Of a DNA stretch of 48,321 nucleotides, positions 20,915-46,032 are shown one piece after another. The stretch comes from Candidatus Saccharimonadales bacterium (lineage in GTDB: Bacteria; Patescibacteriota; Saccharimonadia; Saccharimonadales; Saccharimonadaceae), in NCBI GenBank assembly GCA_036378995.1, contig DASUVJ010000032.1, positions 1 through 48,321 of the forward strand, written 5' to 3'. Numbering within the stretch: position 1 is the stretch's first letter; every line of letters begins with the position of its first letter. Both the position numbers and the translations under genes were made by a program. The notes below the pieces were generated by a model. The model was given only the letters and a program-made list of their open reading frames with translations, did not search any database and was not told where the DNA came from.

Positions 20915-21088
20915 CTCTGGTTAGCAAAAGGCTATTTTACAGTGATAAGAGATAAACGGATATTATTTATGACCAGCCGAAAAGACCCTTGGAAAGGGCT
21001 TGTGCTGACACAATGGTTGATTTATATCCGTTGTTTACCATACCCGAAGATAATACAAAATAATTTCAATAGGGTCAACAGGGACCTT

Positions 21089-21125
21089 GCGGGCAGGACT
21101 GGCAACGTGCACCAGCCCCGCCCGC
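21089..21125 (-). terminator. GC-rich hairpin 3' of the island-1 ORF (no U-run)
   Basis: GCGGGC (21089-21094) pairs with GCCCGC (21120-21125), with an inner CTGG/CCAG stem. Confidence 0.4.
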
Positions 21126-21130
21126 TTCCT

Positions 21131-21622
21131 TCAGGCCGCCTTGACGGTTTCCAGGCAGACGCCCTCCTTGCGGTCGGCGCGCCAGACACAGGCCGTGATC
21201 GGCTCGCCAGGCTCGGCGTGAACCCCCACTGTCCAGGCTTCGAGGACGGGGTTCCCCGGCTCGGAGGGCTGCGGCTTCGCGACCCTGCCGTTCACCGAGA
21301 TCTCCACCTCGAAGGGCGCCTGGTTGTCCGCATCGGGCTGGAAGCGCACCCAGTAGATGCCGGAGCACGCTGCGGGGTTGGACTTGCGCAGCCCCAGGGA
21401 GCCGTGCGGACCTTCCGCGACCTTCACGGGCTTGGCGGGCACGGCGTCGACTGCGTTCTTGTCGCAGCCCGTGTCGGTCACCTCCTTGCCCGAGCAGTCC
21501 TCAGCGCAGGCCGCTGCTGTCGTGAGAGGATCCTCGGACGACTCGTCATCCCCACTGGAGCATCCTGCTGCGAGGAGCGCCGCGAGGATGACCACTGTCA
21601 GGCCTCTGCGACCGTTTAGCAT
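21131..21622 (-). CDS. secreted lipoprotein with actinobacterial-type codon usage; Cys pattern reminiscent of DUF2690
   Basis: Start ATG 21622 is preferred because GAAGGTGGTGA lies upstream; the track start is 21640. The protein starts MLNGRRGLTVVILAALLAAGCSSG, a signal peptide plus lipobox Cys. It also contains GSLGLRKSNPAACSGIYWVRF and a C-terminal ACVW...GVC. Third codon positions show strong G/C bias. Confidence 0.7.
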   Translation of the reverse strand: MLNGRRGLTVVILAALLAAGCSSGDDESSEDPLTTAAACAEDCSGKEVTDTGCDKNAVDAVPAKPVKVAEGPHGSLGLRKSNPAACSGIYWVRFQPDADNQAPFEVEISVNGRVAKPQPSEPGNPVLEAWTVGVHAEPGEPITACVWRADRKEGVCLETVKAA

Positions 21623-21693
21623 GGCGTTCACCACCTTCATCTGAAGAGGAGCAGCACAGCGCCGCCCCTTTCTAATAGTATGCCACGGTTAGT

Positions 21694-22026
21694 CTAGATA
21701 ATCACACCCGTAGGTGAAAAAGCGCACACGATCGTAACGATAATAAGGATTGCGTACCAGATTTTGCGATCCGCCTGGTACTTCTCAAACCGATTCACTA
21801 AAAAGAGGCCGAGTATCATTCCTACCGGTATCGCCGTAAGTGTAAAACCCATCCACTCAACGGGCTGAGCAAACCGGAGCCAAAATGTACCGAGCAGTAC
21901 GAATACCACGAGTTTTAAGAAGTATGTTCCGTCGGACTCAAAGACCTTCTCGTAGCCCCTACGACTGACGGCAGCGGCACGGTTCCGGGCGTAGGTTCGG
22001 GGTCGTTTTTGTTTTGTCGTTGCCAT
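21694..22026 (-). CDS. small membrane protein (110 aa, about 3 TM segments) with a basic N-terminus
   Basis: Best start is ATG 22026 (MATTKQKRPRTYARNR...). A TATACT -10 box lies 7 nt upstream. The track start at 22170 is an extension. Confidence 0.65.
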   Translation of the reverse strand: MATTKQKRPRTYARNRAAAVSRRGYEKVFESDGTYFLKLVVFVLLGTFWLRFAQPVEWMGFTLTAIPVGMILGLFLVNRFEKYQADRKIWYAILIIVTIVCAFSPTGVII

Positions 22027-22033
22027 TTGTCCT

Positions 22034-22062
22034 AGTATACCAAGCTCTATTAATAGGCACAA
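22034..22062 (-). promoter_or_regulatory. leaderless-type promoter for the 21694..22026 gene
   Basis: TTGTGC (22057-22062) - 17 nt - TATACT (22034-22039) - 7 nt - ATG. Confidence 0.55.
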
Positions 22063-22123
22063 ACGTGTTGCAAGGCTCGAACTCATGGGCCATACTGTAA
22101 ATAACATAATGAAGGAGTGCCTT

Positions 22124-22396
22124 ATGGCAGCAACCACAAAAAAACCAGCAGCCAAAAAGACGAGCCGCAAACCGGTTCATAAGGGGTACCGTTCCTTTAA
22201 AAAAGCTCGCCGTGCCGAACCGTTTTTTACATTTGAATTCACGCAGCAAACGGTCTACTGGCTTATCCTGGGGCTTCTTGTCATAGGGCTCGGCGCTTGG
22301 GTAATGACATTGAACATGAAGGTTCAAGCAATCTACGACCAAGTCGAGCAAGATTCAACCCTCGTTCATCCGGCCGAGACAAAAAACGAACAGTAA
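22124..22396 (+). CDS. small single-pass membrane protein (90 aa) with a basic N-terminus
   Basis: Best start is ATG 22124, with GAAGGAG 7 nt upstream: MAATTKKPAAKKTSRKPVHKGYRSFKK...WLILGLLVIGLGAWVMTL. Confidence 0.65.
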   Translation: MAATTKKPAAKKTSRKPVHKGYRSFKKARRAEPFFTFEFTQQTVYWLILGLLVIGLGAWVMTLNMKVQAIYDQVEQDSTLVHPAETKNEQ

Positions 22397-22401
22397 ACTA
22401 C

Positions 22402-22432
22402 AAAAACCGCCCCGGTTAGAGGCGGTTTTTTT
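22402..22432. terminator. bidirectional intrinsic terminator (convergent membrane gene and rpsJ)
   Basis: aaaaaccgcc (22402-22411) pairs with ggcggttttt (22421-22430), and further T residues follow. Confidence 0.85.
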
Positions 22433-22445
22433 ATGATCTGCACTA

Positions 22446-22769
22446 TTACATGCGGATTTCTGCATCAACACCAGCTGGGAGGCTGAGGTTCTGCAGGCTG
22501 TCGATAGTCTTTGGAGTCGCGTTCGTGATGTCAATAAGACGCTTGTGAACACGCATTTCAAAGGTTTCACCACCAGTTTTGTAAACGTGAGGTGACTTTA
22601 CAACAGTGTAAGTGCTGCGGCGAGTTGGCAATGGAACTGGGCCTGCAATGCTTGCGCCAGTACGGATAGCCGTGTCGATAATTTGCTTTGCTGACTGGTC
22701 AATAACCTTGTGGTCATAGGCCTTCAGGCGGATACGGATACGTAGACCCGCTTCTTTTGCATCTGCCAT
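22446..22769 (-). CDS. rpsJ: 30S ribosomal protein S10
   Basis: Best start is ATG 22769 ([25 protein letters not shown]), with AAAGGAG upstream. Track start is 22790. Confidence 0.96.
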
Positions 22770-22867
22770 AGATGTCTCCTTTGTGTGCAATTCCGTAACC
22801 TCTGCTCGAATCGTGCTCTAAGGCTATCGTCTGGCTGAGTTCTCGGAATAATTAGTAATACAGAGGT

Positions 22868-44540: not shown

Positions 44541-45133
44541 GCTTTTTCGATGACTTCGTCGATAAGGCCGTACTTTTTAGCCTCTTCCGCACTCATCCAG
44601 TAATCACGGTCGGAGTCCTTCTCGATTTTAGAAAGTTTTTGGCCTGTGTTTTTAGCGAGGATCTCGTTAAGACGCTGTTTCAAGAACAAACTCTCTCGCA
44701 GTGTAATCTCTTGGTCGGTAACCTTTCCCTGGGTACCACTCGATGGCTGGTGAATCATGATACGACTGTTGGGAAGCGCAAAACGCTTGCCTTTTGCACC
44801 ACTTGAAAGCAGGAACGATCCCATGCTCGCCTGAAGACCGATACCAATCGTCATGACATCGGGCGAAATATATTGGATAGTGTCGTAGATAGCCAAGCCG
44901 TCGTAGACACTGCCACCGGGGCTGTTGATATAAAGTTTTATATCCTTCTTAGGATCTTCGTAGGCAAGGTGAAGGAGCTGCGCCACAACGATATTTGCCG
45001 TGTGCTCGTTGACATCCTCCCCTAAGAAGATGATTCGTTCGTTGAGTAGACGGCTATAGATGTCAAAAGCCCGCTCACCGTCGTGTGTTTTTTCGATGAC
45101 CGTTGGAACTAAGTAACTACCTGGCTTATTCAT
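44537..45133 (-). CDS. clpP: ATP-dependent Clp protease proteolytic subunit
   Basis: Best start is ATG 45133 ([14 protein letters not shown].., 198 aa). Catalytic Ser in [11 protein letters not shown] and His in RIMIHQP. Confidence 0.95.
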
Positions 45134-45139
45134 ATACTT

Positions 45140-45179
45140 AGTATACATAAAAACTAGCACTCCGTGCAAGTGAGTGCTA
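45140..45179 (-). promoter_or_regulatory. leaderless-type clpP promoter overlapping a terminator-like hairpin
   Basis: TTGCAC (45164-45169) - 18 nt - TATACT (45140-45145) - 6 nt - ATG. The hairpin TAGCACTC (45155-45162) / GAGTGCTA (45172-45179) is followed by a U-run on the minus strand. Confidence 0.5.
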
Positions 45180-45197
45180 ATATTTTAAAGAAAAGTA

Positions 45198-45226
45198 TTG
45201 ACTTAATGTTATTTATATTATAAAAT
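45198..45226 (+). promoter_or_regulatory. near-consensus promoter facing the island-4 cassette
   Basis: TTGACT (45198-45203) - 17 nt - TAAAAT (45221-45226). Confidence 0.65.
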
Positions 45227-45261
45227 ACTTCAGTTATTCCTTTTATAGTAGAGTAACGCTC

Positions 45262-45277
45262 CCTAACAAGCAACTAC
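45262..45277 (+). repeat. left arm of the inverted repeat bracketing island 4
   Basis: CCTAACAAGCAACTAC is complementary to 46033-46049 (GTAGTTGCTTAGTTAGG) apart from one bulged A. Confidence 0.8.
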
Positions 45278-45281
45278 AAAC

Positions 45282-45332
45282 GTAGATGAGAAACAGAGAT
45301 AGGTCCTCGACGTCTCCCTGTTTCTCATCTAC
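45282..45332 (+). promoter_or_regulatory. perfect 15-bp stem-loop in the island-4 5' leader
   Basis: GTAGATGAGAAACAG (45282-45296) pairs with CTGTTTCTCATCTAC (45318-45332). The loop is 21 nt. Confidence 0.8.
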
Positions 45333-45384
45333 GCGAACGGATTCGCCTAAGGCACTGCCTGCCGGATGAGAGAAGGGATCGGCC

Positions 45385-45957
45385 ATGTCGTCCGACCGCA
45401 CCACCCGCAAGAACTTCCTGCGCTTCGGTCACGGCACCGCCACCATCCAGGTGGACCACTGGCTGTCGGACCCGCAGGGCGAGCAGCCCTCCACCGACGA
45501 GGTCACCTGCTCCGTCGACCACCTCATGGGGTCGGTCGTCCAGGACACCTTCAAGGTGATGGGCCAGCTCAACCGCTCGGTCCAGGCCAAGGGTCTCGAC
45601 GAGGGCGACGTCGTCCACACCTCGACCCGCAGCATGACGATCGGCGGGGCCACCATGCGCGTCAAGGTGAGCCTGCACGTCTTCCGCAACGTGCCCAGCT
45701 ACATCCTCGCGACGGACGTCGACGAGGTCCTCAAGGGCGCCGTGCCCTGCATGATCCACCTGCTCGACAACTCCCTCCAGGACGAGGACGTGCTCAGCAG
45801 CCTGCCCCCGTTCCTGAGGGACCTGCTCGGTGACCTGCCGGACGGTGTCCGCGTCATGGGCTTCCCGAGCGACCTGTTCGGCGGGATGCCCGGCGATGGC
45901 TCGCGTGGCCACCAGGCCCACGGCTACGCCGGTGGCACCCCGGGCCAGTACCTGTAG
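45385..45957 (+). CDS. orphan 190-aa protein with actinobacterial-type codon usage
   Basis: GAGAGAAGGGA RBS lies 6 nt upstream. Nearly every third codon position is G/C. MSSDRTTRKNFLRFGHGTATIQVDHWLSDPQGEQ...; the C-terminus is Gly/Pro-rich (GGMPGDGSRGHQAHGYAGGTPGQYL). No family recognised. Confidence 0.7.
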   Translation: MSSDRTTRKNFLRFGHGTATIQVDHWLSDPQGEQPSTDEVTCSVDHLMGSVVQDTFKVMGQLNRSVQAKGLDEGDVVHTSTRSMTIGGATMRVKVSLHVFRNVPSYILATDVDEVLKGAVPCMIHLLDNSLQDEDVLSSLPPFLRDLLGDLPDGVRVMGFPSDLFGGMPGDGSRGHQAHGYAGGTPGQYL

Positions 45958-45987
45958 GCAGCCGCTGCCTCGGGTCGACTCTGCCTG

Positions 45988-46023
45988 CCGAGGCGCGAAC
46001 GCATCGTCGCGTTCGCGCCTCGG
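45988..46023 (+). terminator. perfect 15-bp GC-rich hairpin 3' of the island-4 ORF
   Basis: CCGAGGCGCGAACGC (45988-46002) - atcgtc - GCGTTCGCGCCTCGG (46009-46023). There is no U-run. Confidence 0.6.
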
Positions 46024-46032
46024 CGCGGCGAA

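Follow-up and report, generated by a model that had tools for sequence, protein, structure and literature searches.

Why should a bacterial genome of intermediate base composition carry, in the gaps between its housekeeping genes, single small genes that are strongly enriched in guanine and cytosine (GC)? The question is raised by contig DASUVJ010000032.1 of Candidatus Saccharimonadales bacterium (assembly GCA_036378995.1), which was analysed over its full NCBI length of 48,321 nucleotides (nt) and is here called the window. Four GC-rich islands, each with one small gene, lie between an RNHCP-domain gene and a membrane-protein gene (island 1), rpsJ and tuf (island 2), rpsL and rpoC (island 3), and clpP and tig (island 4), the very neighbours named in an earlier reading of the letters alone (hereafter the original prediction). 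That prediction took the islands to be unameliorated, and listed very recent transfer from an actinobacterial host, an insertion mechanism that needs no element-encoded recombinase, assembly chimerism and artificial construction as possible origins. Our results point elsewhere. The reading that we favour, with a probability of about 0.55, is that the islands are long-established accessory genes, restricted to a clade within Saccharibacteria and built like the morons of phages, whose GC-richness is actively maintained, with selection at the RNA level as the favoured force.

Against the 50.1% GC of the window as a whole (120-nt sliding windows, mean 0.50, standard deviation 0.06), four long segments stand out when 120-nt windows at or above 0.60 GC are merged: 21054-21689 (island 1; 636 nt, GC 65.6%), 22927-23415 (island 2; 489 nt, GC 63.8%), 34906-35370 (island 3; 465 nt, GC 64.3%) and 45301-46095 (island 4; 795 nt, GC 66.3%). 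The sliding-window profile therefore recovers the four predicted islands, as 64-66% GC segments on a 50% backbone; they are visible at 300 nt too, and all remaining above-threshold segments are at most 275 nt long. The spacers adjoining the islands are AT-rich (35-39% GC). Each island holds 4-9 mutually overlapping open reading frames (ORFs) of at least 50 amino acids (aa) on both strands, among which the coding pattern, i.e., high GC at third codon positions (GC3) and a GC minimum at position 2, is found in a single frame. The expectation of one sensible, G/C-ending frame per island is thus borne out, with GC3 values of 0.79-0.96 in the island ORFs vs 0.45-0.61 in backbone genes. The GC-richness does not represent the mutational equilibrium of the genome, which is ruled out by the other accessory genes of the window (43-53% GC) and its spacers (35-39%).

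The islands are real, syntenic, old and orphan. Independent ENA metagenome contigs encode proteins identical or nearly identical to those of islands 2 and 4. Their gene orders are rpsJ–island 2–tuf and clpP–island 4–tig, and they align end to end with the window at 95.6-99.3% identity, the differences falling in island and flank alike. The junction-spanning contigs come from four other samples (ENA ERZ27320632, ERZ27245892 and ERZ27320630; Logan SRR31070061) and also from JGI metagenomes, with strain-level or deeper divergence. Within the species, island 2 differs by 2.7% and its flanks by 2.1%, the differences being spread over both. The backbone is of the Saccharibacteria type, in agreement with the original prediction: in a trigger-factor scan of one genome per GTDB species, the best 80 loci (loci outside the window have handles beginning with L) are mostly titled Saccharibacteria, Saccharimonadia or Saccharimonadales, the remainder carrying generic labels or, in two cases, labels of other phyla, and the top match is 84% identical. 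The two exceptions are L058 (SEAL01000001.1), titled 'Chloroflexi bacterium', and L077 (JAEYUP010000001.1), titled 'Candidatus Parcubacteria bacterium'. Their trigger factors are 62-69% identical to that of the window and rank among Saccharibacteria loci, so that the labels are probably wrong or the bins contaminated.

Homologs of the island genes were sought by a word-indexed search of 5.8 billion protein clusters and, for island 3, also by an exhaustive HMMER scan of 1.84 billion representatives. Island 1 has 11 homologs (50-77% identity), all of them unnamed metagenome proteins, which together with the window copy make up an orphan family of 12 members. Island 2 has one cluster at 97% and one homolog at 75%, island 3 has two true homologs (55% and 41%), and island 4 has two. 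Nothing was found beyond Saccharibacteria contexts in these searches, which gives no footing to the actinobacterial source originally suggested. The four proteins match no Pfam, NCBIfam or PADLOC family, and PDB sequence profiles gave no hits; a tblastn search of all four against 72,556 plasmids was negative, as was a search of viral contigs (IMG/VR) with islands 1 and 4. The single match in PHROGs is the lipoprotein signal region of island 1, and an origin from phage, plasmid or defence systems was rejected on these scans.

The relatives carry the genes in the same slots. In L004 and L005, the island 4 gene lies between clpP and tig with 61% identity (GC3 0.99 in L004), and in L016 it does so with about 27-33% identity (GC3 0.95); the gene tree agrees with the tig tree, tig being 96% identical to the window in L004 and 83% in L016. 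The rpsJ/tuf slot holds the island 2 gene in L001, L002 and L091, the last at 75% identity and GC3 0.91. In L010, the rpoC/rpsL slot is occupied by the island 3 gene (55% identity, 63% GC), and L006-L009 and L092 have the island 1 gene (54-77% identity) in the rpsJ-rplC interval, mostly adjoining RNHCP or the same membrane gene, with GC of 59-63% and GC3 of 0.59-0.70. In the comparison with L004, the proteins of the flanking genes are 96-98% identical, whereas 42-65% of the fourfold sites of these genes differ. Because diverged homologs (27-77% identity for islands 1, 3 and 4; 75% for island 2) fill the same slots next to genes whose synonymous sites are nearly saturated, the islands are old rather than recent imports, and the view of them as unameliorated newcomers does not stand. 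It had been proposed beforehand that relatives with the same genes at backbone-like GC would mark the islands as old residents. The presence of the genes in relatives was found, whereas most of the relatives have kept them GC-rich.

An island that is old and still extreme in composition implies that some force other than time since transfer sets that composition. We estimated how much GC should have been lost by a neutral two-state model (strong and weak base pairs), calibrated on the fourfold sites of the flanks, with a ceiling that assumes 100% GC in the island at the split. For island 4, the neutral ceiling is 0.70 in comparison with L004, vs observed fourfold GC of 0.97 and 0.98, and 0.55 in comparison with L016, vs 0.97 and 0.87. 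For island 2 and L091, the ceiling is 0.84 (observed, 0.88 and 0.90), and for island 3 and L010 it is 0.75 (0.72 and 0.81). For island 1 in comparison with L007, L006 and L009, ceilings of 0.76-0.90 stand beside 0.83-0.86 in the window and 0.51 in L009. Island 4 is thus GC-rich beyond neutral decay, and island 2 and the window copy of island 1 are so more weakly. The proportion of synonymous differences (pS) in island 4 is 0.19, against a range of 0.46-0.79 for the flanks; C and G are exchanged at 11 of its 14 synonymous differences, whereas the flanks are dominated by transitions; and the ratio of nonsynonymous to synonymous divergence (dN/dS) is 0.9-1.45. The combination of high dN/dS, low pS and exchanges between C and G indicates that the third positions of island 4 are held at G or C while the protein changes fast. 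The deviation of island 4 is chiefly synonymous, together with a 3' untranslated region (UTR) of 56-77% GC, and GC at its second codon positions (GC2) is backbone-like at 0.42. In the other islands, dN/dS is about 0.2 (island 1), 0.43 (island 2) and 0.63 (island 3).

The layout of island 4 is kept across the window, L004 and L016, in the order promoter, 5' arm, leader hairpin, ribosome-binding site (RBS), ORF, GC hairpin and 3' arm. The promoter, TTGACT-17-TAAAAT at 45198..45226 (+), is retained in L004 and L016 as TTGACT-17-TAxAAT. It is followed by the 5' arm CCCTAACAAGCAACTAC (45261..45277, +), which is complementary to, and pairs with, the 3' arm GTAGTTGCTTAGTTAGG (46033..46049, +) at the other end of the unit. 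Cognate arm duplexes have energies of -25 to -26 kcal/mol in the three lineages, vs -17 for non-cognate duplexes and -7 to -10 for shuffles, and the 5' and 3' arms covary between lineages. The leader hairpin (45281..45333, +) is perfect (-30.6 kcal/mol, z score -7.3), its stems being maintained in L016 via compensatory changes, and the leader (45236-45384) is conserved in three lineages. The 3' arm of this hairpin (TTTCTCATC in the window, TTCCTCATC in L016) has a possible second partner in the RBS region (about 45366-45378), the RBS-proximal GATGAGAGA and GATGAGGAG, respectively, and this alternative pairing suggests translational control.

The island 4 ORF (45385..45957, +) encodes an orphan protein of 190 aa with GC3 of 0.96. 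An AlphaFold2 (AF2) model gives a duplicated beta-hairpin and a long helix ahead of a disordered tail; a search of the PDB with it yielded no meaningful match (best E 0.02). Downstream of the ORF is a hairpin (45987..46024, +) with a perfect 16-bp GC stem, compensatory changes in L004 and no U-tract. A bidirectional terminator hairpin (46103..46135) is common to tig, on the minus strand, and the island 4 transcript. In L016, the entire unit is flipped with respect to tig and clpP. A scan of a metagenome collection with an island-4 profile gave no matches, in a collection that evidently lacks samples containing L004 and L005.

Between the 3' arm and the terminator, a predicted type III hammerhead ribozyme (46048..46106, +) would cleave 3' of C46057; it and the covarying UTR pairing are two features of island 4 beyond the original prediction. 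The region matches Rfam family RF00008 over the full model length (38.9 bits, E 1.1e-6), and no match at island 4 reaches the gathering score of 48.5. In an alignment of five distinct copies, 98.7% of cells are paired, and 10 of 15 pairs show compensatory changes, vs at most 51% paired in slid controls. All three helices are present with covariation, stems I and II closed and stem III open. The catalytic core (CUGANGA ... GAAA) is intact in every copy, varying at position 7 only, and the cleavage triplets are UUC, CUC and GUC. A covariance model finds copies at seven other loci, one of them weak, and recovers the L077 and L021 copies, which were left out of its building, at 42-43 bits.

We note the positions of copies in L004 (6731-6789), L014 (11348-11406, -), L020 (12741-12799), L067 (5613-5671, -), L077 (2859-2913, -) and L021 (6097-6155). 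The copies usually stand 3' of a small ORF with a perfect GC hairpin and 5' of a terminator, and they score under the Rfam gathering threshold. In the window and in L004, the hammerhead lies directly 3' of the 3' arm. In L014 (tig slot) and L077 (another locus), the small ORFs upstream of the hairpin-plus-hammerhead module are unrelated and have raised GC3; a single superfamily for the hammerhead-associated ORFs was rejected at hhalign probabilities below 1%. A search for ribozymes at islands 1-3 found none. Saccharibacteria therefore carry a family of type III hammerhead ribozymes whose activity is predicted from conserved sequence and pairing, and our literature search found no report of hammerheads in this group. 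Type I and III hammerheads are known from intergenic regions of bacterial genomes, and prokaryotic copies are frequently found close to prophage sequences and to ORFs without assigned function, their role there being unknown (PMC6155905).

Similar architecture is seen at the remaining islands. At island 2, a promoter divergent from rpsJ (TTGACA-17-TAATAT, 22904..22932, +), which is base-for-base the same in L091, precedes an orphan ORF (22969..23325, +) of 118 aa with GC3 of 0.89. The GC-rich hairpin that follows (23353..23402, +; -35.3 kcal/mol, z -4.5) is intrinsic-terminator-like, with a U-tract immediately downstream, found after no other island hairpin; the terminator of tuf (23421-23450) is separate from it and intact. 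At island 3, the promoter TTGACA-17-TATGAT (35403..35431, -) matches 11 of 12 consensus positions, lies just past the rpoC terminator and has -35 and -10 boxes identical to those in L010. The orphan ORF (35029..35361, -) encodes 110 aa, or 108 aa from a GTG start at 35355, with GC3 of 0.79, and is followed by a GC-rich hairpin (34958..35012, -; -45.7 kcal/mol, z -4.2). A C-terminal motif, LRLxTP..LE, is conserved in the family and could be a docking or sorting signal. In its longer form, (S/A)xLRLxTP(Y/F)xLE(C/L), the motif (window 35029-35070) is kept in P0022, P0023 and P0025, the rest of the protein diverging. The rpoC/rpsL spacer lacks island 3 and is not GC-rich in 15 more distant genomes, where it measures 224-1040 nt (224-312 nt in four).

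Island 1 (21054..21689, -) lies within the rpsJ-rplC interval, between the membrane-protein gene (21694-22170) and the RNHCP-domain gene (20396-20893). Its ORF (21131..21640, -) encodes 169 aa with GC3 of 0.85 and is followed by a GC-rich hairpin (21089..21125, -; -36.7 kcal/mol, z -4.2) with no U-tract next to it. The protein has a lipoprotein signal with the lipobox LLAAGC and, in an alignment of the 12 family members, six invariant cysteines; in the lipobox stretch ...VVILAALLAAGC, Cys27 is invariant in 12 homologs. On its N-terminal signal and its lipobox with the invariant cysteine, the product qualifies as a putative bacterial lipoprotein. The AF2 model (predicted local distance difference test score 82, core above 90) is an Ig/FN3-like beta-sandwich with no specific relative in the PDB (best Foldseek E 4e-3, TM score about 0.3). 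The product thus looks like a disulfide-rich, Ig-like surface lipoprotein, and the island products in general look like interaction or surface proteins. A resemblance to DUF2690 was rejected, as none of the 12 family members matches the Pfam model even at E up to 10. An own promoter is not evident at island 1; a promoter-like TTGACC-17-TATTAT (21050..21078, -) at its downstream edge faces RNHCP and the S10-operon genes.

Slot 1 has a history of its own. In the comparison with L007, island 1 and RNHCP show a synonymous divergence (dS) of 1.42 and 65-73% aa identity, whereas the ribosomal-protein genes beside the slot have a dS of 0.27 and 97-99% aa identity. This discordance suggests, from sequence comparison, that the slot content was replaced by recombination. 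The stretches compared are 20396-22170 of the window and 3803-5047 of L007. Further GC-rich small orphan ORFs lie in or near the slots of relatives: one in L016 (2565-2873, -) is divergent from the island-4 homolog of that genome, and two in L007 stand upstream of tuf and between tuf and rpsJ, the site of island 2 in the window (349-735 and 2238-2480). These extra ORFs indicate turnover of slot contents.

In organisation, the islands resemble morons, which in the concept of Hendrix and colleagues are reportedly autonomous promoter-ORF-terminator units of deviant base composition, placed between conserved phage genes. The three near-consensus promoters of the original prediction are all present, at 22904 (+), 35431 (-) and 45198 (+), i.e., at islands 2, 3 and 4, with 10-11 of 12 consensus positions and 17-nt spacers. 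Likewise, the predicted GC-rich hairpin is found after each of the four genes (-35 to -48 kcal/mol, z -4.1 to -4.5), and relatives retain several of these 3' hairpins. Insertion between genes that are adjacent in relatives is seen at the tig/clpP and rpoC/rpsL spacers, the two slots surveyed in distant genomes; the tig/clpP spacer ranges from 15 to 2,760 nt, and among the 74 genomes that allow its measurement, about 25 have one shorter than 120 nt. The islands thus share with phage morons the presence of one ORF equipped with a promoter and a stem-loop, the position between normally adjacent genes, the undamaged neighbours and the contrasting composition. Unlike phage morons, they are chromosomal, in a context of ribosomal-protein, RNA-polymerase, tig and clpP genes rather than a phage or prophage; they are conserved in place across diverged lineages, and their GC deviation is upward and, at island 4, actively maintained.

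Among the signs of a recent genomic island, deviant composition is present, and absence from relatives, a known donor and signatures of mobility are not. Horizontally acquired islets are said, in the model of Lawrence and Ochman, to ameliorate over time. The islands are alike in their atypical GC content and codon usage, in being lineage-restricted accessory genes and in having a plausible donor ecology (an epibiont on high-GC hosts). They are unlike such islets in having no integrase, tRNA site, direct repeat or detectable donor homolog, and in that island 4 and, marginally, island 2 are unameliorated despite flanks near synonymous saturation. Gene acquisitions by Saccharibacteria are documented, e.g., the arginine deiminase system (PMC8764695). 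These are likewise lineage-specific accessory genes gained by Saccharibacteria, and unlike the islands, which are single orphans of extreme GC3, they are recognisable metabolic operons with clear homologs. In comparison with bacterial type III hammerheads of RF00008, the island 4 copy is alike in its complete catalytic core, its three covarying helices and its intergenic place by a small ORF of unknown function. It is unlike them in belonging to a defined module (ORF, GC hairpin, hammerhead, terminator), in standing directly after a 5'/3' UTR pairing, and in scoring under the gathering threshold.

How could such units arise and persist? In the mechanism that we favour, each island is a self-contained predicted unit, with a sigma-70-type promoter (islands 2-4), an RBS, a small orphan ORF that evolves fast and a stem-loop rich in GC, located in a permissive gap between housekeeping operons. 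A clade ancestor probably acquired the units from a high-GC source, a plausible route being natural transformation with DNA of an actinobacterial host. From then on, vertical inheritance of the units would have been joined by their exchange between Saccharibacteria, through homologous recombination in the conserved flanking genes. The natural competence of Saccharibacteria, in which cassettes integrate through flanking homology, makes such exchange of slots plausible (PMC10633639). The force that maintains the composition may be selection at the RNA level for a structured, stable message. Pairing of the 5' and 3' arms would close the island 4 mRNA into a panhandle, and the predicted hammerhead cleavage after C46057 would trim the 3' end just beyond the 5'/3' duplex and the GC hairpin. 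The trimmed, end-paired message would then be closed and nuclease-resistant.

Several points weigh against this explanation. For the proposed high-GC origin, the searches gave no donor; islands 1, 2 and 4 were searched by word index, so that donors at 25-35% identity could escape. The case for maintenance draws on three lineages for island 4 and on two each for islands 2 and 3, and it assumes that the islands share the history of their flanks, whereas the slot contents show signs of recombining. The decay of island 1 in L009, to fourfold GC of 0.51, and the position of island 3 at its neutral ceiling mean that active maintenance is not demonstrated for all four islands. Finally, the GC-rich, poorly conserved 3' UTR stretches fit a regional bias such as GC-biased gene conversion equally well.

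Under GC-biased gene conversion, the islands would be old residents whose GC content is a by-product of frequent slot exchange with G/C-biased repair, with no selection on RNA or protein. It would explain why the content of slot 1 diverges on another history than its flanks, why slots differ between genomes, why the 3' UTR is GC-rich (56-77%) although poorly conserved, and why dN/dS is raised to 0.4-1.45 in islands 2-4, as if weakly deleterious GC changes had been fixed. The natural competence that it calls for has been demonstrated (PMC10633639). We nevertheless consider it unlikely, since RNHCP has the same discordant history as the rest of slot 1 without being GC-rich (GC 0.51, GC3 0.61). 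Moreover, the promoters and 5' leaders within the units remain AT-rich, and some lineages show decay of island 1. To hold GC3 at an equilibrium of 0.95-0.99 would also demand a bias far stronger than any that, to our knowledge, has been reported for bacteria.

A bolder version of selection on RNA is that Saccharibacteria possess a class of small, fast-evolving orphan genes whose synonymous sites are kept 'host-like' (GC3 0.95-0.99 in a 50% GC genome) through long spans of evolution, packaged as strongly structured, ribozyme-processed, end-paired mRNAs and used in interaction with the actinobacterial host. We hold this to be doubtful. If true, the host-like mRNA design may resist A/U-directed ribonucleases deployed during the interaction, or may give long-lived messages in non-growing, host-seeking cells; most speculatively, the nucleic acid itself might function in or with the host.

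Recurrent import, by which the resident copy is overwritten again and again by the homologous gene of the current actinobacterial host, taken up as DNA, would keep the ORF host-like in its codons and let it diverge in step with the hosts. It would account for a codon pattern like that of high-GC Actinobacteria and for synonymous differences that are mostly exchanges between C and G, as expected inside a high-GC genome. Cultivated Saccharibacteria do grow on Actinobacteria and are naturally competent (PMC10633639). This explanation is quite improbable all the same, as the searches described above found no homolog outside Saccharibacteria contexts (5.8 billion clusters; island 3 exhaustive, 1.84 billion) and none in plasmids. 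In addition, the ORF co-diverges with an AT-rich promoter, leader and arms of the Saccharibacteria type, and the GC2 of island 4 (0.42) is backbone-like and not actinobacterial.

Even less credit can be given to the idea of mobile cassettes without an element-encoded recombinase, which would move by an unrecognised mechanism or by inversion or insertion via the island-4 arms. The inverted unit in L016, the reuse of one hairpin-plus-hammerhead module after unrelated small ORFs in L014 and L077, and the turnover of slots between genomes would agree with movement. The insertion mechanism envisaged by the original prediction, however, has left no recognisable trace: the four islands share no boundary motif beyond chance 9-12-mers, no island has flanking direct repeats, and the window contains no tRNA genes. 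Terminal inverted repeats are absent from islands 1-3, inverted arms being found at island 4 only, and no recombinase domain was found in the island ORFs and their immediate neighbours, the part of the window scanned exhaustively. The covariation of the arms is the signature of base pairing, not of an end recognised by protein, and the inversion of the unit in L016 includes the promoter, although this is situated beyond the arms. Two known kinds of element were also rejected. An integron gene cassette is at odds with units of which three have promoters of their own and whose 3' hairpins have no common sequence or end motif. A miniature inverted-repeat transposable element or insertion sequence is at odds with the absence of terminal inverted repeats at islands 1-3 and of direct repeats, and with arms at island 4 that covary like an RNA helix.

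Very recent transfer from host to epibiont, too young for amelioration, would match the strong compositional contrast, the sharp edges and the Saccharibacteria backbone. It is very improbable, given that the same slots are filled in lineages with near-saturated synonymous sites in the flanks and that island 2 diverges within the species (2.7%) much as its flanks do (2.1%). Homology searches yielded no donor, and protein divergence of 25-70% excludes that the related contigs stem from a single recent clone. An assembly chimera or artificial construct, for which the compositional contrast alone could be cited, has a negligible chance of being correct, because independently assembled contigs from other samples span the same junctions at 95.6-99.3% identity.

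For annotation, the islands call for caution, as deviant composition is routinely read as recent transfer, a reading that fails here. The units themselves are compositionally deviant accessory genes of an otherwise familiar kind; what is unusual is the persistence of the deviation through deep divergence, to which the hammerhead module is added. If the maintenance is real, the islands would provide a compact natural system in which to ask what holds synonymous sites at G or C in a mid-GC bacterium, with RNA-level selection, biased gene conversion and repeated import as candidate forces. The fast-evolving, lineage-specific small proteins, one of them a predicted surface lipoprotein, are candidates for genes of epibiont-host interaction, few of which are known in the phylum. 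Together with the UTR pairing, the four-part module (ORF, GC hairpin, hammerhead, terminator) offers a testable setting for bacterial hammerheads. Since genetic tools for Saccharibacteria exist (PMC10633639), recoding and deletion are feasible.

GC-rich islands also occur elsewhere in the group. Applied to 1.33 Mb of other Saccharibacteria loci, the same GC criterion yields about 20 more islands, several of them in the tig slot, and of the genes tested from these, 9 of 10 belong to no family. An island in L040 (1934-2722, -; 61% vs 48% GC) encodes an orotidine 5'-monophosphate (OMP) decarboxylase (PF00215) and is a conventional-looking transferred metabolic gene, unlike the orphan islands. In distant Saccharibacteria, whose tig is 61% identical to that of the window, the tig/clpP slot has another GC-rich gene (65% GC vs 52% in the backbone), seen in L082 (9686-10129, -), L083 (11567-12016, -), L087 (5841-6299, -) and L090 (6637-7089, -). 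Its product is a hydrophobic family of about 150 aa that looks membrane-embedded, the members being 63-76% identical to one another.

In the window, the str operon, which is normally contiguous, has two interruptions, both of backbone-like GC, at 24772-30353 and 32732-33822. The interruption between tuf and fusA consists of NUDIX, NDK-like, two glycosyltransferase, HAD and FkbM-methyltransferase genes, and the one between fusA and rpsG of genes for an SPW-repeat protein and a CRP-like regulator.

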